This document shows, piece by piece, positions 19,986 to 57,673 of a stretch of 64,000 nt of DNA. Origin of the DNA: Vicugna vicugna. Its lineage: Eukaryota. The notes under the pieces are model-generated. The model was not told the DNA's origin. It did no database searches and saw only the letters and a program-made list of their open reading frames with translations. Both the position numbers and the translations under genes were made by a program. Every line of letters starts with the position of its first letter. Position 1 is the first letter of the stretch. The stretch is taken from positions 93,655 through 157,654 of the forward strand of contig MU057552.1 of the NCBI GenBank assembly GCA_013265495.1, written 5' to 3'.

Positions 19986-20942
19986 TTGCACACAGACACA
20001 GAGTGGTTCAGGGTGATGGGTATGTGATATTTGGAGCAGAGTCACAGTTTTTGTGCAGAGACCTGACAGGAGAATAAAGTGGGGACGTTAACGTCGGTAA
20101 GAAGTGTTGGTGGGTGTTTAATTCCCCCTAGAGCCGCGTCTCTGTTTCTCTGTAGATGAAGTCAGCAGAGCAGGGATTGGTGTTCCTACTTCTGCGGAGA
20201 ATTGCGTGTCTTCCTCATCGACAAATTCAAGAGGCCGACCTGCCCATCCAATTGCAACATCTTGAATTTGCTTCTTTCTATCCAGGAGGAGATTTTCAAA
20301 TAAGATGCCAGTCAAAAATTCCCCTGTCGAGAGTTAGAGCTGTGTGCCTTTGGGATGACCTCAGAGATGCCTCCACAGAAGTTCAGTGTGCTCTCTCTCC
20401 CTCAGAGCACACAGTTCCCTTCAGTCCGGTGGGTCTCAGCAGAGAAGATTTCACAAATAGACCCTCTCAGGCCCTGGGGACCAACTTCCCGCTTGGCTGA
20501 ACTCTGAAAATGAGCACGAGTTCCTGGCAAAGGGCCTTCTCCAGGGTACCATCTGGCAGATTACATGAGGAAAGTGTACAAAAGAGTGGGAAGGTTGATG
20601 GTATAAATGTATTTTAGTTTTTGCTCTGAATCTGATTCTGTCCTTCTGTTTTGTTATGGAAGTTTTCTTAGGCCAGACATGATTCTCATTTCTTCTTTCT
20701 ATTTGATCTTCCAAGAGGTTTAGATAGGGTTTTTGTTTTAGGGTAAGAATCTTTAAAAAAAGAACAAAAAACCTTGCAAATAGCGTCTTGTTAGGCATTT
20801 GGGAAAGACAACTAGTAAGTTCTCCCAGCAGTATTGAACCCCCTTGTTCCTCCAGGGGGTCTCCAAAGGTATACATGTTCCAAATCTGCCCCAAAACCAA
20901 TGAGCCTTTTCTTTTTTTAAGCACTTCACCATGGACAAAAGA

Positions 20943-21255
20943 TGTCACTAAAGAAGGTGAGAAAAGAGCAGGTCCCCATCATCTAGAGTCCCTACCAAAG
21001 GGCCCACAGAAGTAAAGAGGAGACAAATGAGAGAAAAGTTTTATTTATACACACACAGGAGCCAACCAGAAAAGTAAATACCATGTTAAATGGTGAAAGT
21101 TAAAGGCTTTTTATCAACCTAACTTAATAGGGCAAAGGGAGAGGAGAGAATTGGCTTTCATGACAGATTTTCTTCTACATCTATTGGATCTCAAGTTTCT
21201 TCAGCTTAAAGTGCTTTTGTATTAACCGTGGGTTCCATCTGACTTTCCATTCCTT
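20943..21255 (-). mobile_element. Possible solo LTR (ERV1-like)
   Basis: Starts TGTCAC, has reverse AATAAA (TTTATT) and TCTTCAGCTTAAA. Weak family-level resemblance only. Confidence 0.4.
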
Positions 21256-22099
21256 GAACTTTGTTCTTCTTTTTCAAGATACACTCATGTATTCTGAGCA
21301 CCAGGGTTTTCCACGTGAATTTTAGATTGATTGTCAGTTCCTTCAGAACAGCACCTGCTATTTGGGTATGCATTCTTTGAATCCTTAGATCTATTCGTGG
21401 ACTATTGTCATCTTAGTAGAATGAAGCCTTCTTCTCCATGAATTTCGGATTATTCTCTGTGAATGTTGGTCTTAATTTCTCTCAACAGTATCTCTATTCT
21501 ACTGTAGTCTTCAGTGCCCAAGTCTGGTACTTATTCCTCACCTCTATTGGATGGTGAAGAAGAGACACGACCTCCTGGAGAACCTCTGCTGCCACTGAGC
21601 TGACATGGAACTGAGTCCTGAGAAGGACTTAAATTCTTTTAAAAATAGGATTAGTGTACAATTACTCCATGGATGAGTAATGAATGGGTTACAATAACAT
21701 AGGACTTTAATCCTTTTAGAATTAGTAGAGTAATACAGACACATTACAAAAAATTGAAATATTGCCTAAAAGAGAAGAGATTTGTAATTCTCACCCACAG
21801 AGGTGACTGTCATGAATGATTTGGTTCTTATGTCTCAGTCTCTGTGTCTCTCAGTATGTCTCTTTCCATGTCTGTGTCTCACACACTGGCAATCAGATCA
21901 ATTTACATCTATGTTGATTTCACACATATGTGGTCTTGCAGATGGGACCCTGGGTGCAGACAGTGGGTCTGCATACTTCCACCCTGAGGCCTCCCTTGAC
22001 ATTGGGTTGAGACCAGGCACCCACTTTTCCAACTGCACAGCATTCATTCATCCACATGAACCAGAACGAATGGATCCCATCCCCTTTCCATCAACATTA

Positions 22100-23160
22100 G
22101 TGTTGCTTTAATTTGGACTGTTTCACCCAGTGCTGTGATGAACACCCTTGAAAAGGCATCTTTGAATAGGTGTGTAAGGATTTTAGAGGGATTAACTGTA
22201 AGGATCAGAACTTCTGGGGAAGAGATGCATCTGTGGCCCTTTGATGCATCCTGCACCCTGTTCTCCTGAAGAGGAGNNNNNNNNNNNNNNNNNNNNNNNN
22301 NNNNNNNNNNNNNNNNNNNNNNNNNNNNNNNNNNNNNNNNNNNNNNNNNNNNNNNNNNNNNNNNNNNNNNNNNNNNNNNNNNNNNNNNNNNNNNNNNNNN
22401 NNNNNNNNNNNNNNNNNNNNNNNNNNNNNNNNNNNNNNNNNNNNNNTAACACACACACCTGCATTGCCTCTCATTGGAACTGCCCATGTCTGTTCTGTTT
22501 CTGTTTAGAACACTGGGTTTTGAAAGGTTTTTGGACTACAGGGATGGGAAACCCTTCGCCAACCTTGAGTTATGAGGAATGCTTTTTCCAGTTTGTCTTT
22601 CAAGCAGTTTTTCTTGGCTTTTGCTAATTTTTTTATTTGTTTGGTTTTGTTTTTGCCACAGAAAGAGCTAAGCATCTCCCTTCTGTCTTCTGGCTGTAGT
22701 GTCACAGGGGGAACAGCAGTGTCTACCCTGAGATTATGCACAGAGTTACTAAAAGGGCTTCATTTTGTACGTCACATCTTTAATCCCCCTGGATATCCCC
22801 TTAAAATAATAAAAACGCTGTTTCAAGTGAAAACAAACAAACAAAAATCACCAGCCCCAGCTTAAAACATGTGGGCAGGGACAAAAAAATAACTTTTTTA
22901 AAGTTTCATTGACAAGGAACACCCAGGAGAGGTAAAGACACGTAGAGAGAAAGAGGACTTGGGGTTGTCAGGGGCTGGGTGAGGAGGGAGGGGAGTGCAC
23001 GCTCTGGATCCATGGTTTCACTTTGAGGAAAGAAATAGTGTGAAACTAGATGGTAGTGATGGTCGCACAACATTGTGAATGCCCCTAATGCTCCTGAATT
23101 GCACAATTTAAAAGGGGAAATGTCTATATTTTATTACATGAAACTCTAAAAAGAAAAATA
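22100..23160. repeat. Diverged direct repeat, copy A (paralog of 25760-26800)
   Basis: Shared blocks such as GAGATTATGCACAGAGTTACTAAAAGGGCTTCATTT (22731 and 26377), AAGAGCTAAGCATCTCCCTTCTG and AGAACACTGGG. Offset about 3.65 kb. Built of old L1 fragments. Confidence 0.9.
22277..22446. other. Assembly gap (170 N)
   Basis: Run of N. Confidence 1.
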
Positions 23161-24662
23161 AAGGACGCCATAAATGATGTGAAACAAAGGAAACTAAAGA
23201 AAACCAAACAACAACATCTCCAGCAGAAGGGACGTCAAGTTTGAGAGGGGGAGGGGGAGGGGACTGATGGTGGGATTTTGGAGAACATTTTGGAGAAGAA
23301 GCTGTGGGTGGGTGCAGAGGGGACTCTGCCCCAGGTGGTGGTGATGCCTGAACTGGTTCTCCGTTGCCCAGCCACCCAGGTGCAGAAGCAGTTTCAGGAG
23401 GAGCTGCAGGAGTGGCAGGAGGGAGCTCGGGGTCTCCTGCTGGATCCAGATAGTCCTTTTTTTGGTCTCTGACATCTTCCCCTGCCCCTGCCTCCTCTGT
23501 AACTATTGGATGTGGAGAGAGTTCTAAGTCTTGTGGATGAGCTCATGCTGTGAGAGAGGAAAAATTTACCCACCTGCCTCCCTTTCCATGTGCCTCTTCA
23601 AGGGCAGAAAACTTCCCTGAGCTTTCCAGACAGCTCCCACCCAGAAAGTGCCCACAGGATATGTTCTGTGACTGAATATTTTCAGACAGGTGATCTGAGG
23701 CCATTCTTTGCTCTGGTCCCAACAGTAGCCTCTGGGGACACCTCCCTGTGTGGCCCAGCCATTGCCCCTCCCTCACCTACACACATGCACAGCCCTGCCT
23801 TTCTGACCTTCGGGCTTTTCTTCGGGGGATCCTGGTCCTCCACCTGACTTGCAGCGAGGTGGGCATGGTGCTCCAGGTCAGAGCCGGGTGTGCTGAGCTA
23901 CCCGTCATCCCCGGGCAGGTCCCTGGGAGAGCCCTGGGTGATGTCTGGGTCAGAGGCCTGCCCCATTCATTTCTCGGCCATGGTGGTGGGGACCCCTCCA
24001 TATCCAGACCCACCTGGAGCCTGCGCTGGCCCTCAGAAGAGTGGCACAACAGCCCTTCACTTGGGGAGGGGTCGTTGGTGTTCTTATTCATCAGCTTCTA
24101 TTCAATATGTGGTATCTGGCTCTGCAATGACAGTGATCATCAGCTGACCTGGCCCGGAAGTCTCAGAGCCCTGCCCGGCTAGGAGCACTCCTGATTCTGT
24201 CCACTCGAACCTCTGCTGCCAGATCAGACTGGGACCTTGTTCAGCTCAGACACCCGGGAAGGAAAAGATTTACCCAGAGAGCATGGGCTCCACCTCGGGC
24301 AGCAGGACCCTGCCCCGGCTCTCCACATCCCAGCCAGCCAGCTTTGACCTGGGCTGTGGATGTGACTGGCCCCCCAGGCCTCTGACCTGCTTTTGCTTGA
24401 GGCAGAAACCCATCCCCAACATGACTGCTCCAATTCCACCAGTCAGGAAGGGGCCGTGGAGCTACCTGGGTGGGATCTGAGTGGTGGCCCGGCCTGGGTG
24501 GGCCTGCCCTGGGCCTCCCTGTGTTACCTTTGGGTTCCTCTGGCCAAAAGGCCAGAGGCGCCTTGAGTGAGACCTGACCCAGCGTCGGCCGCATTGGTAC
24601 AGCCCCTCGCTGCGGGCTTTCCGGAGGCTGCTGCCTCGGGATATTGGGATGCAGCAGATCAT
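23108..24662 (-). pseudogene. Truncated RALGDS-like 5-exon gene with two premature stops
   Basis: Exons 24662-24528 (MICCIPISRGSSLRKARSEGLYQCGRRWVRSHSRRLWPFGQRNPK), 24121-24014 (SQIPHIE*KLMNKNTNDPSPSEGLLCHSSEGQRRLQ; RALGDS exon 2 reads SSTQEIGEELINGVIYSISLRKVQLHHGGNKGQRWLG), 23843-23808 (VEDQDPPKKSPK), 23731-23641 and 23547-23108 (Pro-rich). All introns are GT-AG with compatible phases (0,0,0,1). Exon 1 resembles the MFSCC...RRLWPF leader recalled from amplified RALGDS-like genes. Exons 3-5 are less certain. Confidence 0.65.
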
Positions 24663-24714
24663 GCCTCTGCCTCCAAACCAGTGAGCTGCGTAGGGACTTC
24701 TCTACAGAGTGGGT

Positions 24715-24785
24715 GCCTGGTGACGTCGGTTCCAAGTTCTATTGGGTTCTATTGCCAGGGAAGTGAGATCACTTCCTGGAGTCCA
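24715..24785 (-). promoter_or_regulatory. Candidate proximal promoter of the RALGDS-like gene
   Basis: On the minus strand, 60-120 bp upstream of the ATG: CRE-like CGACGTCA (24721-24728), CCAAT (24741-24745) and ETS-like CAGGAAGTG (~24770-24778). Confidence 0.45.
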
Positions 24786-25759
24786 CTTATCCAAGCTTCC
24801 TCCTGACACAATGCTCCTCAAGGGCCTTTCTGGGCTGCCGATCTCTCATTTCTCACTCCATGCCATATTCACACACAGTGACACCAACTCAGCTGCCCCC
24901 ATAGCCCTGGGGAGGCCTGGATGCAGCCAGTGCTGCAGCTCTGATGACACAGCTGGGTTCAGACGTGGCTCCCCCCACTCAGCAGTGCTATTACCCTGGA
25001 CAAGCCACGTGCCTCTCAGTGTCTCCCCAATCCCTCATCGGCACAGTGGGGATCATTCTGGCTCCTGCTTCCTAGAGAAGCCATCCTGTCCCTACACCTA
25101 GAAACACCTACTGCATCTGTCACCCCCATGGGCTGGCATCACAGGGAGCTCATGCACAGACTCAGCAAAGGAAGGACCCCACAGAGGGCTGGCGGAGCGC
25201 AGAGCACATGCCACACAGGCCGGGGTCTGCCCTGGGGTCTGGATAAAGTCACATTCCTTGCTGCTTGCTTCCAAGCTCCCAGTCGTGAGACTGAAAATAA
25301 ATACAACTCTGACATGGTCCACCCTGGCATACAACCTCCTAGGTCATTCTGTCATGTTGACATACAGGCCCAGTGTCCCATCTCGGCCTCTGTGTTGGGC
25401 TGCCCCACAATGGCTTCCTATTTTTTGCCTTCAGTTCCCACGTCCTTGTGTGACCCCCACACCCTCCCCTGGAGGGTGGATGGACTTTGGGACCAGGCTC
25501 TCACATGTAGACTGACTTGTGAAAGTGTGCATGAGTTCCACTCTTTACCAGCTGCAGTGTTCCTTCTCTCTGTCTCTCAGTGCCTCTCTCTCTGACTTGC
25601 CTCCCTCTCTCTCTGTTTCTCTGTCTCCCCCTGCTTCTCTGTGTTTCAGTCTGTCTGTCTCTTTTCCTGTATGTATGTGTGTATATATTTATGTGTATAT
25701 GTGTGTATTTATGTGTGTGTATTGTTTGGGTCCACGGCAGGTCACTTCTGAAAATCCCT

Positions 25760-26800
25760 TGTTGACATATTGATTATTTTGAATTCATGTTACTGAAGAA
25801 AAATTATCTTTGAAAATTGTGCAAAAACTTTGGTGGGATCTCCTCTAAGGATCAGCACTGCTAGGGAAGGAATGCAACTGTGTCACTTTGATGTGTCCTG
25901 CACCTTGTTCTGCCACAGAGGAGCGTCCATTTGCTCTTCCCTCCAGGGGACATCCTGGGGCCTCTGCCTGCTCACGTTGCCACCAGGGCTAATTGTCACC
26001 GGACTAAAGACCTGCCAGTGTGATGGTGGCCATTGCTGTCTCTGCAGTCTGTCCGTCTGCCTGTGTCCTCACCTGAAAGGTCTAACATCTCTAGCACACA
26101 CTGGCCACCTGCACTGCCTGTCGTTGGAACTGACTGTATGTGTTTTATTTCTTTTCAGAACACTGGGCTTCAAGAGGTTTTTGGACCACAGGGATGTGAA
26201 GCTTTACTCCGACCTTGGGTCATGAGGAACGCTTTTCCTAGGCTGTGATTTGTCTTTCCAGCTGTCTTTCTTGGCCTTTGTTTTCTGTTTTTGTTTGGCT
26301 TTATTTTGCTACAAGAAGAGCTAAGCATCTCCCTTCTGGCTCTGGTTTCACAGTTAGAACAATAGTGCCTACCCCGAGATTATGCACAGAGTTACTAAAA
26401 GGGCTTCATTTGGTACATCTCATCTTTAATCCATCTGGATTTTCCTCTCAAAATACAAAAATGCTAATTCACATGAAAACAAACAAAAAATTCACCCTTC
26501 CCTATTTAAGATATGTGGGCAGACAAAAAAAAAAGCCACCTTTTATATGATTTCTTTGGTAGGGAACCTCCAGGATAGGTAAAGACATAGAGAGAGTAAG
26601 GGGATTAGGGCTCATCACGGGCTGGGGGAGGTAGGATGTGGGGTGTGATTTGGATGCAAGCTTTTACTTTGAGGAAGGAAATAATCTGAAACCAGTGATG
26701 TTGGTCTCACAGCATTGTGAATGCACTAACTGCTCCTTAAAATTGCACAATTTAAAATGGGAAAAGGCTAAACTTTATTCTTATAAACTTAAAACAAAAA
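25760..26800. repeat. Diverged direct repeat, copy B (paralog of 22100-23160)
   Basis: Collinear with copy A along its length, including the L1 3'-end fragment at the right end. Confidence 0.9.
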
Positions 26801-26810
26801 CAGAATATAC

Positions 26811-27519
26811 TATAATAGAAAAGAAAAAAATCTGACTCCATAGAAGATCTGTTCTTTTTGCTTTAACCCTGTGCCCTCTTTTCTAGGCTTAGTCTTACTA
26901 GCTCTGCACCTTTTGTAAAACAATGTTGCCTTTAGCCTGAAATATACAGGAGAGCCAATTTTCAAGGCTCTGATCTTTAAGGATATTAACACTTTTGCAC
27001 TTATATAAAGACAACAAGTTGCAGAATAGGAAAAACTTTTGTTTTGTTAGAGGTTTTACAGAGACATTATGACCTGGTCTACGTAGACAGCTGCAGATCA
27101 AGATAATGGGAGACTAATATCTTGGAGAACCATCTTTTCCATGTCAGACTTCAGGCTCCTTTCTACTAAAAAGGGGAGGGGCTGTAGTTGGTTGTTGCAA
27201 ACTTCTTGGTGTAGAATTTCTTTGTTCTTGGAATCCTTTGCAGCTGTCCACATGGGTCAGATCATGGTGTTCCTGTAAAACCTGCAACAAAACAAATTTT
27301 TTCTCTTCTGCAACTTGTTATCTTTATAGGAGTGTAAAAGTGTTAATATCCTTAAAGGTCAGAGTTTTGAGAATAGGCTCTCCTGTTTATTTCAGGCTAA
27401 AGGCAACATTGTTTTACAAAAGGTGCAGAGCTAGCAAGGCTAAGCCTAGAAAACAGGGCAGAAGGTTAAAGAAAAGGAACAGATCCAATATGGAGTCAGA
27501 CTTGTTCTTCTATATTACA
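26811..27519. mobile_element. Two partial ERV-type LTRs in inverted orientation (fold-back)
   Basis: 26811-27097 is the reverse complement of ~27238-27519 (CTAGCTCTGCACCTTTTGTAAAACAATGTTGCCTTTAGCCTGAAATA / TATTTCAGGCTAAAGGCAACATTGTTTTACAAAAGGTGCAGAGCTAG). The right copy begins TGTAA on the minus strand. LTR identity is by resemblance. Confidence 0.8.
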
Positions 27520-28699
27520 GTGCCTTTTGGTGAGAGCTAAGAGGATGATTCCTGGGAGGGTCCTCCACTGTCCCAGGCTCGAGTTCAGGCAGGATCCCTG
27601 CCAGATTCACCATGACTTTGGACCTGATCTCCCACAGAGAAAGTGACAATTATTGGATTAAAATTATTTGTCAAAATCCTTTCAATTGCCTGTAAACTAT
27701 ACCACAGTAGGGGATGTCTCATTGGCCACTCAACTGCCAGCCTCCCCTGATGCAAGGGGCCAGCGTCGCGGCGGGATGCATGGTGGCCTGGCCAGTGCAC
27801 CTTCCTACTTTGCTCTCCAGCCGTGGCTTCCTAACTTTGACGTTTTAAAACTCCTGTCCCTCTTCCCTCTGGCCTGGTGTGAATGAACAAGGTCCCTGCA
27901 CCCACCTGGGCTGAGCCCAGGCCACGCACACAGCCCCATGCACACAGCCCACCACTGTCTACCCCTGGGCTCAAGTGCACCCTCTGAACTCCCCCACCCC
28001 AAAGGTCCACGTGCCCAGTGCCTCCGTCCTAGGAGTCCGGATCACCATCAAGACCATCAACCACCCAAGGCCCACAGGCCAGTGGCTGGCAGCCTGGGAT
28101 CACCCTGACCCATCAGGTCAGTTGAGGCACAGGGTGCGGGGATCAGGGTGCCAGGGCGGGAATTGGAACCTCATTCAGCCCAGCCTGCCTCGCCCTGTAG
28201 CCTCAGACATTAACTATGAAGGTGCACACTAGGCTGGATCCCCCACTGGTGGCAGTAGTCATCATTACTGGAGCCCGGATTTCCCCACCCCAACCACAGG
28301 GTGAGGGGTAAGGGAGTGAGCTCAGGGTATGGGTGCACTCAGAGTGAAGGGGATCCCATTGTGAGGGGGTACAGGTTGAGGGGTGTGGGGCCCACTCAGA
28401 GTGGAACTGACCTGGCTTAGAGGAAACTGACCTGGAGGTGAGGGGGACAATTTCAGGATGTTGGGGATCCTGTGGTGAGGCATAAGGGGTAAGCTTGTGG
28501 GTGTAGGGGCCATAGGTTAGGAACTAGCAGGATGGAGTGTCAGGGCAGGGACCTCGGTGCGAGGAGAAGGAACCCTGTCTTCAAGGTCTAGTGGGAGACT
28601 GGGCCTGGCCAGGGGTGGGAGCGTAGTAACAGGGAGGGGAAGTTGAGCAGGGGAAGTGGGGTTGGTTCTAGTTCAGTGCCAGGACCCAGTCGGTGGCAG

Positions 28700-29350
28700 G
28701 GTGAGGGCTCTGGGGATGGAGACCCGGCAGGACGAGCAGGAGGGGCCCCACCTGGCTCCTCCCGGCCCCAGTGGCCAGGTCTGGTAAAGCAGGAGACCCA
28801 CGAGAGCAGTTTGCGCTGCAGGCGGGAGGAGGAGGGGCGCGCACGCGCAGACGGACAGAAGCGCGGACCCCGGAACCCTCCCAGAACGCGTGGAAGCTGG
28901 CGGGAGCTGGTTGCTCCTGGACCAGCTCCTGGAAGAGGAACACAGCCTGGGGTCTTGGCCACCGCTTGCCCTCGGCTCGGCTGCCGCTGCCGGGCAGTCA
29001 AGGGGGCGCTGGTGTGGGCGCGCTGCCCGGGGAGCCGGCGGGTGACGCCTGGGCTGTGCAGCTGGGGAGGAGCACAGGGAGGGGTGCAGAGGTGAGGTCT
29101 AGGCTGCGCGTCCCATTACGACACTGAGGCGGGTCCCAGCAGCCGCTGTGGTTCGTGGTAACCCCGCTATTAGTAGTTTCTGAACCCCGCGTTTTTGCCG
29201 CCGCTTATACCCGGGTTTAGGAGAGCAAGTACAGCCCCGGGAGTTGGGAGGGCGCCGCACGGCTCCGGAGCATCTCCGACTGGCCCTCAGACGATGGGCT
29301 GCTCCTGGGAGGCGGGTGCCGTGCGGTCGCGGGGCCTTGGATGGAATGGT
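28700..29350 (+). promoter_or_regulatory. Orphan CpG island with probable non-coding first exon
   Basis: CpG-dense. NRF1-like GCGCGCACGCGCA (~28837-28849), CTCF-like CAAGGGGGCGCTG (~28999-29011), donor-like GAG|GTGAGG at ~29091. Parent gene not recognised. Confidence 0.6.
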
Positions 29351-30110
29351 GGCTGTCCCACGAGAGTCCCTGGGTTTGCTCCCATCTTCCCCGTGGCCTG
29401 ACCTTGGGGGCGGCCTCTAAAGCCCCAGATTCGTGGGACTCAGGTTACAGGTCAGGCTGCTCCTGGGAGGTGGGTGCAGTGCGATCAGTGTGCTGGGATG
29501 GCTGCAGCAACAGCGGGAAATGGTCGCAACCCCCGCGCTCTCACAGGGCAGCCCCAATCCCGCCATCGCAGCTGCCGCCATTCCCTGACAGCACAGCACC
29601 CGCCTTCCAGGAGCAGGCTGACCTGTAACCTGAGTTCCACGAACCTGAGGCAGCAGAGGCCAAGCTCAGGCCATGTGCTGGGGAGTTTGAAGCAAATCCA
29701 TAGGCTCCCATGGGCAGACCCCATAACCCGCCAGTGCCTTTGAGCACACCGCGCCCTCCTCCTGGGAGCAGGCTGACCTGGGGACCATGCCTGGAGCAGC
29801 AGAGGCCGAGCCCAGGACAGGCCTTGGGGGAGATGGGGGCAAAGCGACAAGCTTGCCAGGTCGCTGGCCATCTCCCCGCTGCTACCCCAGGTTCATGGAT
29901 CACTTGTTTTCACGTCAGTGTGTTCCTGAGAGTCAGGCGTGGTGCGGTCTGGAGGCGGGGGCTGTGGGGATGGGTGCTGCCCCAGAGGGAGCAGGTGGAC
30001 TTGCTCCCATCTTCCCCAGGGCCAGATCTGGGGATGGCCTCTGTTACCCCAGGTTTGCAGGACGCATGACATGTCAGCCTGTCCCTGGGAGGAGGGCTCA
30101 GTGTACTCGG
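29290..30110. repeat. GC-rich ~157-bp minisatellite, about 5 degenerate units, central units inverted
   Basis: Plus units carry CTGCTCCTGGGAGG and TTGCTCCCATCTTCCCC (29298-29520, 29860-30110). Minus units at 29558-29850 carry GGAGCAGGCTGACCTG and AGCAGAGGCC. Confidence 0.8.
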
Positions 30111-30189
30111 GTCAGCCTCAGTGGCTGACAAGGTCTTTAGAAGTTGGCTGTAGCCCAGCATAACTAAATCTCCTTTCTTCTCTTGCTTC

Positions 30190-31345
30190 CACAGTTGGTG
30201 GCTGTATTGGTTTTTCCATTATAGATTATTGCTGGATAATGAACATAGGTTTCTCTTCTATATAGAAGAAACTTCATTTAAAATCTATTTTTATATATAG
30301 TGGCTAACATTTGTAAAGCTCAAACTCCCAAATTTATCCCTTCCCACCCCCTTTCACTGGTAACCTTAAGATTGTTTACTAAGTCTGCAAGTCTGTTTCT
30401 GTTTTGTAGATGAGTTCACAGCGTCCTTTTCTCTCTTTTTTTAGATTTTTTTAGACATATGAGTGGTGTCATTTGGTATTTTTCTGTTTCTGGCTGCTTT
30501 CACTTAGAATGACGATCTCTATGTCCATCCATGTTGCTGCAAATATTTTTATTTTGTCCTTTTCATTGTAGAGTAGTTTTCCAGTGTATAAATATACCAC
30601 AACTTCTTTATACAGTCGTATGTTGATATATTTAGCTTGCCTCCATGTCTCGGCTATTGTATACAGTGGTGCTATGAATACTGGGATGCAGGTATCTTTT
30701 CACATTGGAGTTCCTTCCAGTTATATATGAAGAAGTGAGACTGTTGGGTCATAGGGTAAGTTTACTTTTAGTTTTTGGCGGGATTTCCATGCTTTCCATA
30801 ATGACTAAACTAACCTGGATTCCCACCAGCAGTGTAAGATGGTTCCCTTCCCTCTTCAGCCTTTCTAGCATTTATCACTCATGAACTTCTGAGAGATGTC
30901 CATTCTGACTGGTGTGAGCTGATATCTCATTGTAGCTTTGATTTGCATTTCTCTGTTTATTAGTGATACTGAGCATTTTTTCATGTGTCTATTGGCCATT
31001 TGTGTCTTCATTGGAGAAATGCTTGTTTAGGTCTTCTGCCCATTTTTGGATTGAGTTGTTTATTTCTTTGGTATTAAGTTGTATGAGCTGTTTATATATT
31101 CTGAAAATTAAGCCTTTGTTAGTCGTATCATTTGCAAATATTTTCTTCCATTCATAGGTTGTTGTTTTATTTTACTCATGGTTGCCTTTGCTGTGCAGAA
31201 ATTTATGAGTTTAACTACGTCCCATTTGTTTACTTTTGCTCTTATTTCCATTGCCTGGGTAGATTTCCCTAGGAGAGCGTTGATAAGATTTATGCCAGAT
31301 AATGTTTTGCCTATGTTTTCTTTCAGGAGATTTATCATGTCTTGT
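30190..31345 (-). mobile_element. 5'-truncated LINE-1
   Basis: 3' UTR plus ORF2 end (NLLKENIGKTL, INKWD-like, FCTAK). Confidence 0.9.
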
Positions 31346-31729
31346 CTATCTGCATCTGAAGCCTGTACTCTAGATTTGTGCTTCAGTTTTGAATTTTGAG
31401 CTTCTTAGAGAACACCTACTTTTAGCTCATATGTCAGATTCAACATGTCTAAATCTGGTTTCATAATCTTTTTCTTGCAATGTCTCCACATTCAATGGGG
31501 CAATCATTTCTTTGGTCTTGAATACCCAAAGGCTTGGAATGGTCTTTGATTTATCTTTCTGTCACCACCCTCCACATTTTGTCAGCTTCTGGAACTGTAT
31601 GTTTTTGGTTTCAAGTGTCTTTCCTGATTGCCGATACTCTGATGAAGAAGAAGAAAATTGTGACTTGCATTATGTTTCTATTGGACCATGCTGGCTTCTA
31701 ACTTATTGCAAAAAATATGAACTTTATTA

Positions 31730-31890
31730 AAAATTTTGTAATCGAGTAGTTGATTTTTATAATATTAGTTTCAGATGTACAACAAAGAGATTCAACATTT
31801 TTATATATTATATTCCACTTAAAGTCACCATAAATAATGGCTATATTTCCCTGTGCTGTATGATACAGCTCTGTAAACTATCCATTATAT
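31730..31890 (-). mobile_element. Older L1 3' end, left half (continues at 39483-40110)
   Basis: GGCTATATTTCCCTGTGCTGTA ends at TCCATTATAT and resumes as TCCATTTTATATGTAG at 39483. Confidence 0.7.
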
Positions 31891-31983
31891 TTTTTATTAA
31901 TTTTTTCACATTTTTAACATTATTTTTAATGTCATATAATCAGTTTAAAGTTTCTGGTATACAGTATGATGTGATCATTCACT

Positions 31984-34900
31984 CTTTTTTTAAAATTTTT
32001 TATTGATTTATAAACATTGTACAATGTTGTGTCAAATTCCAATGTTCAGCACAGTTTTTCAGTTATACATGAACATATATGTATTCATTGTTACATTTTT
32101 TCTCTGTTAGCTAACATAAGATCTTGTGTATATTTCCCTGTGCTTTACAGAATAATCTTGTTTACCTGATATACAATTATAGAGTCCCGTCTATCCCTTC
32201 CCACCCTCCACCCTCTTGGCAACAACAAGTATGAATTCTATGTCTATGAGTCTATATCTATTTTGTATTTATGCTCTTTTTATTTTTGTGTTTTAGATTC
32301 CACATATGAGCAATCTCATATGGTATTTTTCTTTCTCTTTCTGGCTTACTTCACTTAGAATGACATTCTTCAGGAGCATCCATATTATTGCAAATGGCAT
32401 TATGTTGTCAGTTTTTATGGCAGAATAGTATTCCATTGCATAAATATACCACATCTTCTTTATCCAGTCATCCAACATTTGGGCCCCTGTCTTGGCTATT
32501 GTAAATAGTGCTGCTATGAATATTGGATGCAGGTGTCATCCTGAAGTAGGGTTCCTTCTGGATATAAGACCAGGAGCAGAATTCCTGGGTCATACAGTAT
32601 GTCTACTCCTAGTGTTTTGAAGAATCTCCATACTGTTTTCCACAGTGGCTGCACCAAACTACATTCCCACCTGCAGTGTAAGAGGGTTACCCTTTCTCCA
32701 CAGCCCCTCCAGCATTTGTCATTTGTGGATTTTTCAATGATGGCCAATCTGACTGGTGTGAGGTGATACCTCATTGTAGTTTTGATTTGCATTTCTCTGA
32801 TTATTAGTGATATTGAACATTTTTTATGTGCCTATTGATCATTTCTATGTCTTCCTTGGAGAACTGTTTCTTCAGTTTTTTTGCCCATCTATGTATTCTG
32901 TTGTTTGGTTGTTTCTTATTAAGTTGCATTAGCTGCTTATATATTCTGGAGATCAAGCCTTTGTCGGTATCACTTGCAAAAATTTTCTCCCATTCCGTAG
33001 GTTGTTTTTTTGGTTTTACTTATGGTTTCCTTTGCTGTGCAGAAGCTTATAAGTTTTACTAGGTCTAATTTGTTTATTCTTGCATTTATTTCTTCTAGGA
33101 AAGATTTGAGATATATGTTAGATAATGTTTTGCCTATGTTTTCTCTAGGAGTTTTATTGTATTTTGTTTGATGTTTAGGTCTTTGATCCATTTTGAGTTT
33201 ATTTTTGTGCATGGCATAAGGGAGTGTCCTAGTTTCATTGTTTTACTTGCTCCTGTCTAGTTTTCCCAACACCACTTGCTGAAGAGACTGTCTTTATTCC
33301 ATTGTATATTATTGCCTCCTTTGTTGAAGATGAGTTGACCAAATGTTTGTGAGTTCATTTCTGGGCTCTCTATTCTGCTCCATTGGTCTATATGTCTGTT
33401 TTTGTACCAATACCATGCTGTCTTGATGACTGCAGCTCTGTAGTATTATCTGAGGTCTGGGAGAGTTATTCCTTCAGCCTCTTCCTTTCTCTTCAGTAAT
33501 GCTTTGGCAATTCTAGGTCTTTGATGGTTCCATATAAATTTTATTATGCTTTGTTCTAGTTCTGTGAAATATGTCCTGGGTAATTGGATAGGGATTGCGT
33601 TAAATCTGTAGATTGCCTTGGACAGTGTGACCATTTTCACAATATTGATTCTTCCGATCCAACAGCATGGGATATCTTTCCATTTTTAAGTCTTCTTTAA
33701 TTTCCTTCATCAATGGTTTATAGTTTTCTGTGTGTAATACTTTCACCTCCTTGGTTAGATTTATTCCCAGATATTTTATTACTTTGGGTGCAATAGGGGA
33801 TTGTTTCTTTAGTTTCTTTTTCTGTTGATTCGTCGTTAGTGTAAAGAAATGCAACTGATTTTTGAACGTTAATCTTGCAGCCTGCTACCTTGCTGAATTC
33901 TTCGATCAGCTCTTGTAGCTTTTGTGTGGACCTTTTAGGGTTTTCTATATATAGTAACATGTCATTGGCATAGAGTGACACTTTTACCTCTTGTTTTCCA
34001 ATTTGAATCCCTTTTATTTCTCACTCTTGTCTGATTGTTGTGGCCAGGACTTCCAAGATGATATTGAATATGAGTGGTGATAGTGAGCATTCTTGTCTTG
34101 TCCCAGATTTTAGTTGGAAGCTTTTGTGTTTTTCACCATTGAGTACTATGCTGGCTGTAGGTTTGTCATATATAGCTTTTATTATGTTGACATATGTTCC
34201 CTCTATACCCATTTGGGTGAGAGTTTTTTTTATCATAAATGGGTGTTGAATTTTATCAAAAGCTTTTTCTGCATCTCTTGAGATGATCATGTGGTTTTTG
34301 TCCTTTATTTTGTTGATGTGATGTATTACATTGATGGATTTGCATATGTTGAACCACCCTGTGTCCCTTGGATGAATCCCACTTTGTCATGTTGTATAAT
34401 CTTTTTTATATGTTGTTGGATTCTCTTTGTTAATATTTTGGTGAGGATATTGGCATCTATGTTCATCAGTGATATCAGCCTATAATCCTGTTTTTTTGTA
34501 GTGTCTTTGCCTGGTTTTGGTATCAGGGTGATGGTGGCTTCATAGAATGAGTTTGGGAGTATTCCCTCCTTTTCAATTGTCTGGAAGAGTTTGAGAAGGA
34601 CTGGTATCAGTTCTTCTATGTATGTTTGGTAGAATTCCCTGGTGAAGCCATCCAGTCCTGGACTTTTATTTGTAGGAATGCTTTAATTGCTATTTCTATT
34701 TCATTTCTAGTGATTGGTTTGTGCAAGTGGTCAGTTTCTTCTTGATTCAGTCTTGGTGGACAGTATGTTTCCAGAAACTTGTCCATCTCCTCTAGGTTAT
34801 TCAGTTTGGTTCCATAGAATTTTTCATAATATTCTTGTATGATATTCTGTATTTCTATTGTATTAGTTGTAATTTCTCCATTTTCCTTTCTTATGTTGCC

Positions 34901-37900
34901 AATTTGTCCTCTCTCTTTTTTCTTCTTTGTGAGTTTGGCCAGAGGTTTGTCGATTTTATTTACTTTTTCAAAAAAAAACAGCCTTTGGTTTGATTGATTT
35001 TTCTACAGTCTTGTTAATCTCTATTTTCTTTATTTCCTCCCTAATCTTTATTATTTCCTTCCTTCTGCTGACTTTTGGGGCTTTTTGGTCTTCTTTTTCT
35101 AGTTAATTCAGCTGGTGGGTTAAATTGTTTATTTGAGTTGGTTCTTGTGTTCTGAGGAAGGCCTGTATTGCTATAAACTTCCCTCTTAACACTGCCTTAG
35201 CTGTGTCCCACAGATTTTGAGTGGTTGTGGTTTCATTGTCATTTGTCTCAAGGTATTTTTTAATTTCAGCTTTGATTTCCTCATTGACCCTTTTTTTTAA
35301 TAGCATGTTGTTTAATCTCCATGCTTTTTTTTTCTCCTTTGTTTCTCTGTTGTTGATTTCTAGTTTCATGGCATTGTGGTCAGTAAAGATGCTTGAGATA
35401 ATTTCTATCTTTTTAAAATTGTTGAGGTTTCTTTTGTGCCCAAGTACATGATCAATCCTGGAAAATTTTCCATGTGCACTTGAAAAGAACATAAATCCTA
35501 TTTTCGGGGATATAATGCTCTGAAAATATCCACCAAATCTAATTTTTCTATTGTATTGTTTTATTTCTCTCTTGCCTTCTTTATTTTCTGTCTGAGAGGC
35601 TGGTCTAGTGATGTTAATGCAGTGTTAAAATCTCCAACTATGATTGTATTCCCATCAATATCACCTGTATCTCTGTTAGCAATTGTTCTTTATATTTAGG
35701 TGCTCCTATATAGGGTGCATATATATTAATGAAAGTAATATCCTCATCTTGTATCACTCCTTTAATCATTATAAAATGTCCTTCTTTATCTTTATGGCCT
35801 TTGTTTTAAAGTTTATTTTGTCTGAAATCAGTACTGCAACACCTGCTTTTTTGGCTTATCCATTTGCATGGAATATCCTTTTCCATCCTTTCACTCTCAA
35901 ACTATATGTGTCCTTCTCCCTAAAGTGGGTCTCTTTTATCCAGCATATTGAAGGTTCTTGCTTTATTACCCAGTCTGGCACTCTGTGTCTTTTGACTGGA
36001 TCATTTAGTCCATTAACATTTACAGAAATTAATGATACGTGTGTGCTTATTGCCATTTTGAACTTATCTTTGCAGTTGAATCGGTATTTCCTCTTTGTTC
36101 CTTTTCTTCTTCCTTTTGTGGTTTGGTAACTTTCCTTTGTGTTATCATGGATTTTATTTAATTTTTATGACTCCCTTGTAAGTTTTTGGCTTGTGGTTGC
36201 TCTTTTTCATATTAGCTCCTTACTATAACTGTTTTCTATTAAACTGATAATAACATTATCTCAAACCCATCATACCGAGAACAAAAAATTTAAAAAAAGA
36301 GAAAAAATAATTCTATATTTCCCTGCCTCCCTCTGCCATTCTCAATGATTTGTATGTCTTCTATAATTTTGTGTTTATTTTATTTGTAATTCATGAGTTA
36401 TCACCTTTCCAGTTGTGAGTTTCTCATCTCTGTAGCATCCTGCTGCTTTTCTATTTAGAGTACAATTTTCAATATTTCTTTTAGCATGTGTTTAGTGTTG
36501 CTAAACTCCTGCAGATTTTTCTTATCTGTGGAATTCTTTTGCTCTCCTTCTATCCCAGGAGATAGCCTTGCTGTATAAAGTATCCTATGCTGCATCTTTT
36601 TTTTCATTCAGGAGTTTGAATATATCTTACCACTCCCTTCTGGCTTCTAGTGTTTGTGTAGAGAAATCAGCTGAGAGCCTTATGGGGTTTCCCTTGTAAC
36701 TTACTCTTTGCTTTTCTCTTGCTGCCTTTAGAGTCATTTCCTTATCCTTGTATCCGGCCATCTTGATTATGATATGTCTTAGTGTGGGTGTATTTGTGTT
36801 CTTCCTGTTTGGAACCCTCTGAGCTTCCTGTACTTGGATATCTGATTCCTTCTTTAAGTTTGGGAAGTTTTCAGTCATGATTTCTTCAAAAACCTTTTCA
36901 ATCCCTTTTGATCTTTCTTCCCCTTCTGGGACCTCTATCATGCGAAAACTGGCATGCTTTATATTAACCCATAGGTCTCTTATGCTATTTTTATTTGTTT
37001 ATCTTGTAGCTCTTCTGATTGTGTGTTTTCTGTTGTCCTGTCTTATAGGTCACTAATTCGTTCCTCTGCATTTTCTACTCTGCTTTGCACAGCTTTTAGA
37101 TAATTCCTTATCTCATTCAATGAGTTTACCCATTCTACTTGGCTCTTTATAACTCCAATTTCATTTTTGACGTATTTTATATCTATACACTATCTCTTTT
37201 AGTTCCTTCAGCAATTTGATCACTCCTTTTTTGAAATCTTGATCTATTAGGCTCTCAATGTCTATTTCATTGGTCATTCTTTCAGGGGATTTCTCTTGTT
37301 CTTTTAATTGGGAATGGTTTCTCTGCTTCTTCATCTTGCTCATATATCTCTGGTGCTGTGGCTTATGGAGTATCAGTAATTTATTGTGGCCCTTAAAGGA
37401 GTTTATTTATTTATCTATCTAATGCCTATGTAGGAATAAAACTTAAAAAGTAAAAAAAAAAAGGGGAGAAAGAACTTTAAAAAAAGGGAAAAAAAAAGGT
37501 TTAAAAAATGGACTATGTAGGAATAAAACTTAAAAAGTAAAAAAAAAAAGGAGAGAGAGAACTTTAAAAGAAGGGAGAAAAAAACGTTTGAAAACTGTGT
37601 ATCAATTATAGAAGAGCAATTTGAATTAGAGTAGCATTCGAATTGAGATCTTTTTAAAAACCCTCAAGAAAGCTAAAACGAAAAAAGATCTAAAAATGAC
37701 ACTTAAAATCCATTTACAAACAACAGCAGGAGATCAAACCCAAAAGAAGTGAAAATGCAATCAAGTGGATTCTCTTTAAAAAACAATAATATAACTACTT
37801 TAGGAGAGATACCCAAAAGGAATCAAAACTAGAAGCACACACAATTGTCTAGAAAGAAAAATTCAAAAAGGAACCACAACTAGAAGCATACACAACCTTC

Positions 37901-51529: not shown

Positions 51530-54500
51530 TTTTTAACTTTTTTTATTGAGTTATAGTCATTTTACAATGTTGTGTCAAATTCCAGTGTAAAGAACAATTT
51601 TTCAGTTATAACAGAACATACATATATTCACTGTCATATTATCTTTTGCTGTGAGCACCACAAGATCCTATATATATTTCCCTGTGCTGCACAGCACAAT
51701 ACTATTTATCTATTCTACATTTTGAAATCCCACTTTGTCCCTTCCTACCCCCGTCCCCCTGGCTACCTCAAGTTTGTACTCTATGTCTATGAATATATTT
51801 CTGTTTTGTATTTATGCTTCGTTTTTGTTGTTGTTGTTGTTGTTTTTTAGATTCCACATATAAGTGATTTCATGTGGTATTTTTCTTTCTCTTGCTGGCT
51901 TACTTCACTTAGAATGACATTCTCCAGGTGCAAACACGTTGCTGCAAAAGGCATTACGTTGTCGGTTTTTATGGCTGAGTAGTATCCCATTGTATAAATA
52001 TACTACATCTTCTTTATCCAGTCACCTGTTGATGGATATTTAGGCTGTTTCCATGTCTTCACTATTGTAAATAGTGCTGCTATGAACATTGGGGTTCAGG
52101 TGTCGTTTTGAAGTAGAGTTCTTTCTGGATATATGTCCAGGAGCGGGATTCCTTGGTCATACAGTAAGTCTATTCCTACTCTTTTGAGGAACCTCCATAC
52201 TGTTTTCCACAGTGGCTGCACCAAACTGCATTCCCACCAGCAGTGTAGGAGGGCCCCCCTTTCTCCACAGCCTTTCCATCATTTGCCATTTGTGGATTTT
52301 TGAATGATGGCCATTCTGACTAGCTTGAGGTGATACCTCATTGTAGTTTTGATTTGCATTTCTCTGATAATTAATGATATTGAGTATTTTTTCTTGTTCC
52401 TATTGATCATTTCTATGTCTTCCTGGGACAATTGCTTGTTGAGGTCTTTTGCCCATTTTTGGATTGTGTTGTTTGATTGTTTCTTATTAAGTCATATGAG
52501 CTGCTTATATATTCTGGAGATCAAGCCTTTGTTGGTTTCCTTTGCAAAAATTTTCTCCCATTCTGTAGGTCTTTTTGTTTTACTTATGGTTTCCTTTGCT
52601 GTGCAAAAGCTTGTAAGTTTCATAAGGTCCCATTTGTTTATTCTTGATTTTATTTCTATTGCTTGAGATGACTCTTCTAAGAGAGCATTTTTGATATGCA
52701 TGTCAGATAATGTTTTGCCTATATTTTCTTCTAGGAGGTTTATTTTATCTTGTCTTATGTTTAAGTCTTTGATCCATTTTGGGTTGATTTTTGTGTACAG
52801 TGTAAGGGAGCATTCTAGCTTCATTTCTTCACATGTTGCTGTCCAGTTTTCCCAACACCACTTGCTGAAGAGGCTGTCTTTTTTCCATTGTATATTCTTG
52901 CCTCCTTTGTCCAGGTTGAGTTGACCAACTGTTTCTGAGTTCATTTCTGGGCTCTCTATTCTGTTCCATTGATCTACATGTCTGTTCTTGTACCAATACC
53001 ATGATGTCTTGATGACTGCAGCTCTGTAGTATTGTGTGAAGTCTAGGAGAGTTATTCCTCCAGGCTCTTCCTTTCTCTTCAGTAATGCTTTGGCAATTCT
53101 AGGTCTTTGATGGTTCCATATAAATTTTATTATGCTTTGTTCTAGTTCTGTGAAGTATGTTCTGGGTAATTTGATAGGGATTGCATTAAATCTGTAGATT
53201 GCCTTGGGCAGTGTGACCATTTTCACAATATTGATTCTTCCAATCAAAGAACATGGGATATCTTTCCATTTTTAAGAGTCTTCTTTAATTTCCTTCATCA
53301 ATGGTTTATAGTTTTCTGTGTATAATTCTTTCACCTCCTTGGTTATATTTATTACAGTGTATTTTATTACTTTGGGTGCTATTTTAAAGGGGATTGTTTC
53401 TTTAGTTTCTTTTTCTGTTGATTCATCATTAGTGTAAAGAAATGCAACTGATTTTTGAAAGTTAACCTTGTCACCTGCTACCTTGCTGAATTCTTTAAAC
53501 ACATCTAGTAATTTTTTGTGGACCTTTTAGAGTTTTCTATATATAGTAATGTATCATCGGCATATAATGACACTTTTATGTCTTATTTTCCAATTTGGAT
53601 CCCTTTTACTTCTCTCTCTTTCCTGATTGCTGTGGGCAGGACTTCCAAGACTATATTGAATAAGAATGGTGATATTGGACAACATTGTCTTGTCCCAGAT
53701 TTTAGTGGGAAGCTGTTGTGTTTTTCACCATTGAGTTCTATGCTGGCTGTAGGTTTGTCATATATAGCTTTTATTATGTTGAGATATGTTCCCTCTATAC
53801 CCACCTGGGTGAGAGTTTTTATCATAAATGGGTATTGAATTTTATCATAAGATCTTTCTGCATCTATTGAGATGATCATGTGGTTTTTGTCCTTTGTCTT
53901 GTTGATGTGATGTATTACATTTATTGGTTTGCATATGTTGAAACATCCTTATGTCCCTGGGATGAACCCCACTTGTTCATGATGTATAATCTTTCTTATG
54001 TGCTGTTGGATTCTATTTGCTAGTATTTTGGTAAGGATTTTTGCATCTGTGTTCATTAGTGATACTGGTCTATAATTCTCTTTTTTTGTGGTTTTGATAT
54101 CAGGGTAATGGTGGTTTTGATATCAGGGTAATGGTGGCTTCATAGAATGAGTTTGGGAGTTTTCCCTGTTTTTCAGTCTTCTGGAAGAGTTTGAGAAGGA
54201 CTGGTATGAGTTCTTTGTATGTGTGGGAGAATTCCCTGGTGAAGCCTTCCGGTCCTGGAATTTTATTAGTAGGGAGGTTTTCTATTGCTAATATGATTTC
54301 ATTTCTAGTGATTGCTTTGTTCAAGTGGTCAGTTTCTTCTTGATTGAGTCCTGGTAGACTGTATGTTTCCAGAAACTTGTCCATCTCTTGTATGTTATCC
54401 ATTTTGGTTCCATACATTTTTCATTATATTCTTGTATGATATTCTGTATTTCTATGATATTTTTTGTAATTTCTCCATTTTCCTTTCCTATTTTGCTTAT

Positions 54501-57390: not shown

Positions 57391-57391
57391 G

Positions 57392-57673
57392 ATTTTTTAA
57401 AAATTTTTTATTGATTTATAATCATTTTACAATGTTGTGTCAAATTCCAGTGTTCAGCACAATTTTTCAGTCATTCATGGTCATATACACACTCATTGTC
57501 ACTTTTTTTCTCCGTGAGTTATCATAACATTTTGTGTATATATCCCTGTGCTATACAGTGTAATCTTGTTTATCTATTCTACAATTTTGAAATCCCAGTC
57601 TATCCCTTCCCACCCTCCACCCCCCTGGTAACCACAAGTCTGTATACTCTGTGAGTCTATTTCTGTCCTGTAT
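57392..57673 (-). mobile_element. Short L1 3' fragment with no visible TSD
   Basis: L1 3' UTR directly joins L1 ORF1 sequence (left) to 14 bp of intron before ANO6 exon 12 (right). Confidence 0.9.

Follow-up and report, generated by a model that had tools for sequence, protein, structure and literature searches.

A probable dead copy, in Vicugna vicugna, of a multicopy camelid gene family of RALGDS-like descent

We analyzed a 64,000-nucleotide stretch of the Vicugna vicugna genome (assembly GCA_013265495.1, contig MU057552.1, positions 93,655 to 157,654; hereafter the window), mammal-like DNA with two N gaps. On its minus strand, between positions 24662 and 23108, lies a gene-like element for which an earlier note had proposed five exons: RALGDS-like 5' exons followed by a new proline-rich tail, with no guanine nucleotide exchange factor (GEF) domain. 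We find that this locus is probably a dead member of a multicopy gene family of camelids, itself of RALGDS-like descent. The family kept the RALGDS-like leader exon and exon 2, and the REM, CDC25 and RA domains are absent from it.

The proposed model was rebuilt from its junctions on the minus strand (24662–24528, 24121–24014, 23843–23808, 23731–23641 and 23547–23108). The exons are 135, 108, 36, 91 and 440 nt long, separated by introns of 406, 170, 76 and 93 nt. All four introns have the GT..AG boundaries, the phases are consistent, and the total of 810 nt amounts to 269 codons plus a stop. Exactly two internal stops interrupt the frame: TAG at 24100–24098 and TGA at 23545–23543. As a description of the letters, the five GT–AG exons with matching phases and two nonsense codons were therefore correct at every position, and inspection bears out that the list of open reading frames (ORFs) holds only fragments of the model. 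Homology to annotated proteins covers exon 1, exon 2, the exon-3 region and most of exon 5, and by this measure the feature is real and gene-derived, not chance sequence.

Used alone as a single-sequence query for longer proteins, the window's exon 1 returned zero candidates; an alignment of 16 exon-1 translations was needed to find relatives. Searching with this alignment yielded 586 candidates, among them five Vicugna pacos (alpaca) proteins of 267–321 residues. An exhaustive HMMER search with the exon-1-anchored alignment against 1.84 billion representatives returned 51 proteins at E ≤ 1e-3 (individual relatives are given P numbers below). Behind the same leader, two of the 51 carry RasGEF, three RasGEF_N and one the PACS C2 domain. 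The leader-bearing GEF proteins are named RALGDS or RALGDS-like in their sources. The GEF-less relatives, variously named, come from bats, anteater, armadillo and wild camel, and one horse cluster among the relatives comprises 63 members. Even in small searches, exon 1 matches annotated proteins with E values of 1e-16 to 1e-10. It is 71% identical to residues 1–45 of alpaca P0001 and 53% identical to the leaders of rabbit RALGDS isoform X2 (P0019) and horse RALGDS isoform X7 (P0049). The window copy begins with M-I-C-C, the family majority with M-F-C-C.

The relationship to RALGDS-like proteins extends into exon 2. In BLASTP, P0001 aligns with the horse RALGDS-like protein P0041 at 40% over the first 83 residues (E 4e-11), and the alignment ends in G-Q-x-x-L-R. 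Profile-profile comparison (hhalign) of the family with RALGDS-like proteins gave a probability of 98.7% and an E value of 2.8e-16 over 79 columns. Because of the P0041 alignment, the profile match and the HMMER relatives, the RALGDS link of exons 1 and 2 holds: exon 1 does resemble the Cys/Arg-rich leader of RALGDS-like genes, exon 2 is RALGDS-like as the earlier note had held, and the locus shares leader and exon 2 by descent with a RALGDS-like gene.

We also considered whether the model could lack any gene ancestry and have been put together by chance from the open frames and GT/AG pairs of GC-rich DNA. The empty single-sequence word search with exon 1 would fit, as would the lack of a Pfam domain in any ORF here, but neither the exon 1 matches and the family profile's match to RALGDS-like proteins nor the collinearity of three separate segments with the alpaca proteins could then be explained. 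The alpaca relatives, the tblastn mapping described below and the HMMER and hhalign matches refute this idea, and we give it practically no credence.

The proline-rich tail had been taken as new sequence. It is probably the old post-REM linker of RALGDS-like proteins, since a short collinear match places it there. Positions 23897–23829 of the window match the segment directly after the REM domain of P0041, a collinear but weak match (tblastn, E 0.004). P0001 matches the same post-REM segment, also weakly (BLASTP, E 0.037), and hhalign listed columns 1–79 only. Part of the Pro/Ala-rich segment may thus correspond to the stretch just after the REM domain.

In the bat Molossus molossus, five proteins (P0036 and P0067–P0070) carry the same leader fused to the N-terminal C2 domain of phosphofurin acidic cluster sorting protein. 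The fusion points either to capture of the leader exon by a different gene or to chimaeric models.

In agreement with the earlier note, no GEF, REM or RA domain was found at the locus. The scans used stop-to-stop ORFs, the smallest taken being 35 aa, and gave only noise-level Pfam matches. RasGEF (PF00617) is absent at E ≤ 0.1 from 249 minus-strand ORFs of at least 35 aa at positions 1–30000, and neither RasGEF, RasGEF_N nor RA was found in 139 plus-strand ORFs of at least 45 aa at about 10300–32000. At E ≤ 0.01, PF00617 is missing from the plus-strand ORFs and from alpaca proteins P0001–P0005; the same ORF and alpaca-protein scans contain no REM/RasGEF_N (PF00618) and no RA domain (PF00788). 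Elsewhere in the genome, 51 RasGEF exon matches fall on 26 contigs, none of which (0/26) holds a copy of the element. A search for a gene joining leader and GEF, with rabbit P0019 as query, placed RasGEF and leader exons on different contigs; given long introns and short contigs, this is no proof of absence. In the alpaca relatives, exon 2 jumps directly to the post-REM segment, and residues 84–202 of P0041 have no counterpart in P0001. The locus therefore shows none of the RasGEF, REM and RA domains that define the RalGEF family (RALGDS, RGL1–4).

Comparison with its relatives indicates that the proper exon model for the locus is one of three exons, not five. The alpaca proteins consist of a 45-residue leader, a long second part and a direct join to a Pro/Ala-rich tail with a hydrophobic end. 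Their second part spans proposed exon 2, intron 2 and exon 3. By tblastn, they place on the window at 24662–24528, 24091–23805 and 23542–23150. Annotated and intact relatives alike read straight through proposed intron 2, and nothing in them matches proposed exon 4; the bat relatives likewise read through the proposed donor at 24014. The majority sequence of 39 copies from this genome is collinear with residues 50–138 of P0001 in one frame, with 51.5% identity over 99 positions and a single stop. A tblastn search with ten relatives against positions 22447–26000 gave no match to proposed exon 4 at E < 0.5. The idea, prompted by the RALGDS sequence, that exon 4 is the first REM exon was dropped, as tblastn with three RasGEF_N-bearing relatives lent it no support.

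An intact locus in the same genome, L060, provides the junctions directly. It has an intact frame of 314 codons, of which 305 are identical to the alpaca protein P0006. Its exons measure 135, 277 and 533 nt (stop included), both introns have GT/AG boundaries, and the second junction is in phase 1. Transferred to the window, the junctions are 24528|24121 and 23808|23502. Intron 2 of L060 covers proposed exon 4 as well as the first 45 nt of proposed exon 5; the exon-4 equivalent lies between the donor at 965 and the acceptor at 1274. The acceptor AG used by the intact relatives corresponds to 23504–23503 of the window and is present in 33 of the 39 copies. A second intact-type locus in the same genome, L062, has 264 codons. 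The prediction that intact paralogues exist elsewhere is borne out by L060, L062 and the alpaca proteins. At L060:565–1398 (+), the frame of exon 2 runs on without a stop over 278 codons, through all of intron 2 and past the region equivalent to proposed exon 4. Such an open frame may have arisen by chance in GC-rich DNA, or it may reflect an isoform that retains the intron.

The five-exon structure therefore does not hold: splicing in the intact relatives connects 24528 with 24121 and 23808 with 23502, no homologue supports exon 4, relatives use intron 2 as coding sequence, and with the proposed exon-5 acceptor a stop enters the frame in 37 of 39 copies. Proposed introns 2–4 are probably best read as splices drawn around lesions.

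The three-exon frame, too, is broken in the window. The locus belongs to a subfamily of at least 39 copies, which we aligned as the window plus 38 paralogues, leaving out the partial copy C512. Three lesions affect exon 2 of the window copy. The TAG at 24100–24098 is private to it, and 34 copies have CAG there. Its exon 2 is 314 nt long instead of 315, a length found in 15 of the 39 copies, the window among them. The TAG at 23900–23898 occurs in 24/39 copies and is the single stop of the majority exon 2. Exon 2 is open in seven of the 39 copies. The subfamily's exon 2 is 315 nt (3n) in length versus 277 nt (3n+1, phase 1) in the intact type; therefore the Pro-rich frame is lost when the homologous sites are used. 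By the tblastn placement of P0001, P0003 and P0005, the window copy has the collinear leader, long exon 2 and tail with hydrophobic C-terminus of the camelid leader/Pro-Ala-rich family, and it lacks the family's uninterrupted three-exon frame. We file it as a pseudogene member because of the two TAG codons, the 314-nt exon 2 and the misfit exon 2 phase.

The tail itself is recognizable. Residues 133–307 of P0001 match the window at 23524–23150 and residues 190–321 of P0003 at 23542–23150; residues 166–297 of the bat protein P0027 match the window tail with E 2.3e-5 (all tblastn). The repeat block of the tail is much shorter than in the alpaca proteins. Among the paralogues, the last exon is 414–460 nt long in 37 of 38, the remaining one being incomplete and left out, and the length steps are not multiples of three.

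The proposed five-exon reading fares no better across the subfamily. The stop codon at 23545–23543 is found in 37 of the 39 copies (TGA in 25, TAA in 12; the other two have CGA), and a stop at codon 9 is common to 13 copies. The ATG is kept in 32/38 paralogues and all eight splice dinucleotides in 18/38. Exons 1–4 are intact in only two of the 38, L058 and L059. In L058, CGA replaces the shared stop, and there alone the proposed frame continues through the tail, with its stop at codon 239. Divergence from the majority sequence is 0.035–0.067 for proposed exons 1–4, 0.046–0.049 for the halves of exon 5 and 0.045–0.059 for introns. The ratio of nonsynonymous to synonymous differences per site (pN/pS) is 0.965 in the proposed frame versus 0.70 and 0.92 in the other two frames. 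Compared with L060, the subfamily majority has an identity of 0.76–0.92 in exons and 0.82–0.88 in introns, the exons being no better kept. Neither these subfamily values nor the ratio of nonsynonymous to synonymous substitution rates (dN/dS) of the intact type gives a sign of purifying selection. The window copy and its subfamily evolve neutrally.

These data bear on a different possibility, that the subfamily is a live gene with the proposed splicing, its intron 2 derived from the middle of the ancestral exon 2 and its exon 4 newly gained. Its product would be about 124 residues long, to the shared stop, or about 238 residues in rare copies such as L058. The majority sequence is indeed open over 124 codons of exons 1–4 up to the shared stop, each GT/AG and the exon lengths 135/108/36/91 are kept in most copies, exon 4 is the least divergent of all segments (0.0345), and L058 and L059 have exons 1–4 intact. 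Against these points, pN/pS is not below that of the wrong frames, exons diverge as much as introns, 36 of 38 paralogues are disabled in exons 1–4 or at a splice site, 13 copies share the codon-9 stop, and exon 4 occurs in no annotated relative. Moreover, both the shared TAG and the window's one-base loss lie in precisely the stretch that proposed intron 2 would splice out. We consider a live gene of this kind very unlikely.

Several observations nevertheless count against our conclusion that the locus is a dead copy in a dead subfamily. Indels per copy per 100 bp are fewer in exons 1–4 (0.07–0.20) than in introns (0.18–0.35); because of this and the majority frame open for 124 codons across these exons, the subfamily may once have been under some constraint, or may give a short product that ends at the shared stop. 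L058, with CGA at the shared stop and its frame open to codon 239, is a further point. At TAG 23900–23898, 15 of the 39 copies have sense codons (CAG in 5, TTG in 5, AAG in 2, and GAG, TAT and CAT in one each), which could be chance or selection for an open frame; five of the six kinds are one step from TAG, and, if inheritance accounts for part of these changes, their number is close to that expected under neutrality. Finally, dN/dS among four intact-type loci is 0.62–1.15 (six pairs; L063 was left out as its exon 1 is not alignable), and among five such loci exon divergence is about equal to intron divergence. For this reason 'intact' is not proof of 'functional', and dead and live subfamilies differ less sharply than their open frames by themselves would suggest.

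The assembly comprises 2.03 Gb in 12,405 contigs. The 1,555-bp gene stretch has at least 34 other full-length matches with 85–92% identity, introns included, as well as partial ones; this count comes from the 40 first-look candidates, out of 134, that were scored. With up to three mismatches allowed, a 24-base segment of exon 1 occurs 72 times in the genome, and the reversed control pattern 0 times. The locus is one of at least 72 leader copies, and the expectation of a lineage-restricted multicopy family is borne out. Ten copies were fetched with 20 kb each. They match the window at about 90% from 11.3–14.3 kb to 31648, where nine of the ten stop matching exactly; the fetched stretch of the tenth ended earlier. 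Past 31648, the nine copies are 90–93% identical to each other for at least 2.1 kb, a sequence absent from the window. Because they continue beyond this point, the duplicated unit exceeds 22 kb in length, and the window holds a truncated copy of this duplicon. The genome contains at least 40 copies of it, about 90% identical, and several contigs carry two or three copies, in both orientations.

The locus is thus a decayed passenger copy of an annotated but uncharacterized, GEF-less, RALGDS-derived family. The subfamily would have been copied passively as cargo of the duplicon about 20–25 million years ago, a date based on the roughly 5% divergence from the majority and a neutral rate of about 2.2e-9 per site per year. 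The locus probably yields no functional protein and at most a non-coding or nonsense-bearing RNA.

It is also conceivable that the copies matter as RNA or DNA, as a non-coding or small-RNA repeat or as a part of the duplicon with a regulatory or structural role, in which case the decayed ORF would be irrelevant. The sheer number of duplicon copies, often several to a contig and in both orientations, would agree with such a role, as would an AATAAA hexamer kept in 33 of 39 copies. On the other hand, no Rfam family reaches its gathering score within 20000–32000, divergence is uniform over the segments with no conserved island, and young segmental duplicates persist without function. We regard a role of this kind as unlikely and favor passive copying of a dead gene.

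The features of the locus and its surroundings are collected in Table 1. Other copies of the duplicon contain the direct-repeat pair at a length of about 1 kb and, in addition, an inverted partial copy of the repeat that matches 26810–27521. The direct repeat has no Pfam or Rfam match. A transposon as the source of the hydrophobic tail and its stop was rejected, as the flanking repeat at 22456–23135 ends at the AATAAA, outside the coding part. The region 28000–30000, inside the duplicon and 3.5–5.5 kb upstream of the leader exon on the gene strand, has a G+C content of 64% and is a possible CpG island or promoter, with no protein domain detected. Minus-strand ORF fragments at 31100–37000 and 52300–57400 resemble LINE-1 ORF1/ORF2, by eye only. 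Six RNA runs, labeled as reproductive-system, tick and 'organism C' metatranscriptomes, hold 5–11% of sampled words of 22900–24900, shares too small to be evidence of expression.

Table 1. Coordinates of the gene copy and associated features in the window
Feature	Position	Strand	Description
Exon 1	24528–24662	-	45-codon Cys/Arg-rich leader; ATG at 24662, donor GT at 24527–24526
Exon 2 of the intact-relative structure	23808–24121	-	Equals proposed exon 2, intron 2 and exon 3
Proposed exon 4	23641–23731	-	Without counterpart in annotated relatives; in intron 2 of the intact type
First 45 nt of proposed exon 5	23503–23547	-	Includes the stop at 23545–23543; intronic in intact relatives
Last exon	23108–23502	-	Pro/Ala-rich tail, then hydrophobic C-terminal segment
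AATAAA polyadenylation-type hexamer (putative)	23130–23135	-	Directly past the hydrophobic tail; in 33/39 copies
Duplicon part with gene copy	11335–31648		About 90% match to ten other copies; window copy ends at 31648
Direct repeat	22456–23135	+	76% identical to 26106–26779; flanks gene copy; ends at AATAAA

What the intact members encode can be approached by structure prediction. AlphaFold2, run on P0001 together with its four paralogues as input, gave a mean predicted local distance difference test (pLDDT) score of 50.7, with 216 of 313 residues below 50 and one confident helix at 283–312. Intact members, with three exons and about 260–320 residues, are predicted to be disordered but for this one C-terminal hydrophobic helix, and the earlier description of the protein as mostly disordered is right for the family.

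A wider reading, which we hold to be rather unlikely, is that the intact members form a genuine fast-evolving gene family: L060, L062, the alpaca models and the GEF-less leader proteins of bats, xenarthrans, horse, rabbit and elephant. Truncated RALGDS-like genes would then have been amplified repeatedly in placental mammals. The disordered protein would be membrane-held at both ends, with the C-terminal helix as a putative tail anchor and, in the leader, paired cysteines beside basic residues that presumably resemble palmitoylation motifs. Such a protein could interfere with or scaffold Ras/Ral signaling without exchange activity. The near-neutral to raised dN/dS would represent diversifying selection, by analogy with germline-expressed ampliconic genes, and the window's dead subfamily would be the wreckage of an arms race.

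The locus itself is of little import. It is one of dozens of decaying copies, and annotation as a pseudogene fits it. It does mark a large, recently amplified duplicon that is apt to confuse camelid assembly, gene prediction and read mapping. At the family level there is a modest question: a module of leader and exon 2 was kept, and the catalytic domains dropped, in several placental lineages. The family cannot be called undescribed in the databases, as the earlier note had supposed, because NCBI and UniRef already hold models of it. Automated pipelines give its products unrelated names, such as 'skin secretory protein xP2-like', 'fibrous sheath CABYR-binding protein-like' and 'predicted GPI-anchored protein 58'. 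A full-text literature search, supplements excluded, found no paper treating these proteins as one family; the nearest is PMC7806701.

That paper describes an elephant protein, XP_023398370.1, a Pro-rich, disordered RGL-like paralogue without the RasGEF N-terminal domain, which its authors attribute to partial gene duplication (PMC7806701). We liken it to the camelid family by this description only; it comes from another lineage and belongs to a single paralogue pair, not to an amplified duplicon family. In pig, RALGDS is listed among copy-number-variable genes (PMC3716681). Two further papers, PMC2873428 and PMC3141262, have no bearing on the family. The RALGDS-like proteins are homologous to the family in leader and exon 2 and share a short collinear match in the P-G-S-(D/E)-L-E-H segment after the REM domain; one of them, P0051, also ends in a Pro-rich stretch and a hydrophobic tail. 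They carry RasGEF_N and/or RasGEF, whereas the window locus, its paralogues and the alpaca proteins have neither.

GEF-less proteins are also found in bats (Eptesicus XP_054583337.1, P0027, named 'fibrous sheath CABYR-binding protein-like'; Molossus P0012) and in xenarthrans (Tamandua P0011 and P0028; Dasypus P0018). Like the camelid proteins, they have the leader, a read-through exon 2 and an acidic or Pro-rich region, with a hydrophobic C-terminus in P0027 and P0028. They differ in belonging to other lineages, at 29–52% identity, and the loss of REM and CDC25 may be shared or independent. In the camelids, the alpaca proteins, Gnomon models such as XP_072821441.1 (P0006, 314 aa), go by 'uncharacterized protein' at NCBI and by 'Skin secretory protein xP2-like' in UniRef, and Camelus ferus XP_032326716.1 (P0008), 'predicted GPI-anchored protein 58', groups with the alpaca relatives. 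The alpaca and Camelus ferus proteins resemble the window copy in leader, long exon 2, Pro/Ala-rich tail and hydrophobic C-terminus, collinear on 24662–23150. Unlike the alpaca proteins, the window copy has a private TAG, a shared TAG, a one-base loss in exon 2, a short repeat block and a misfit phase, and where the alpaca models have three exons, the model proposed for the window had five.

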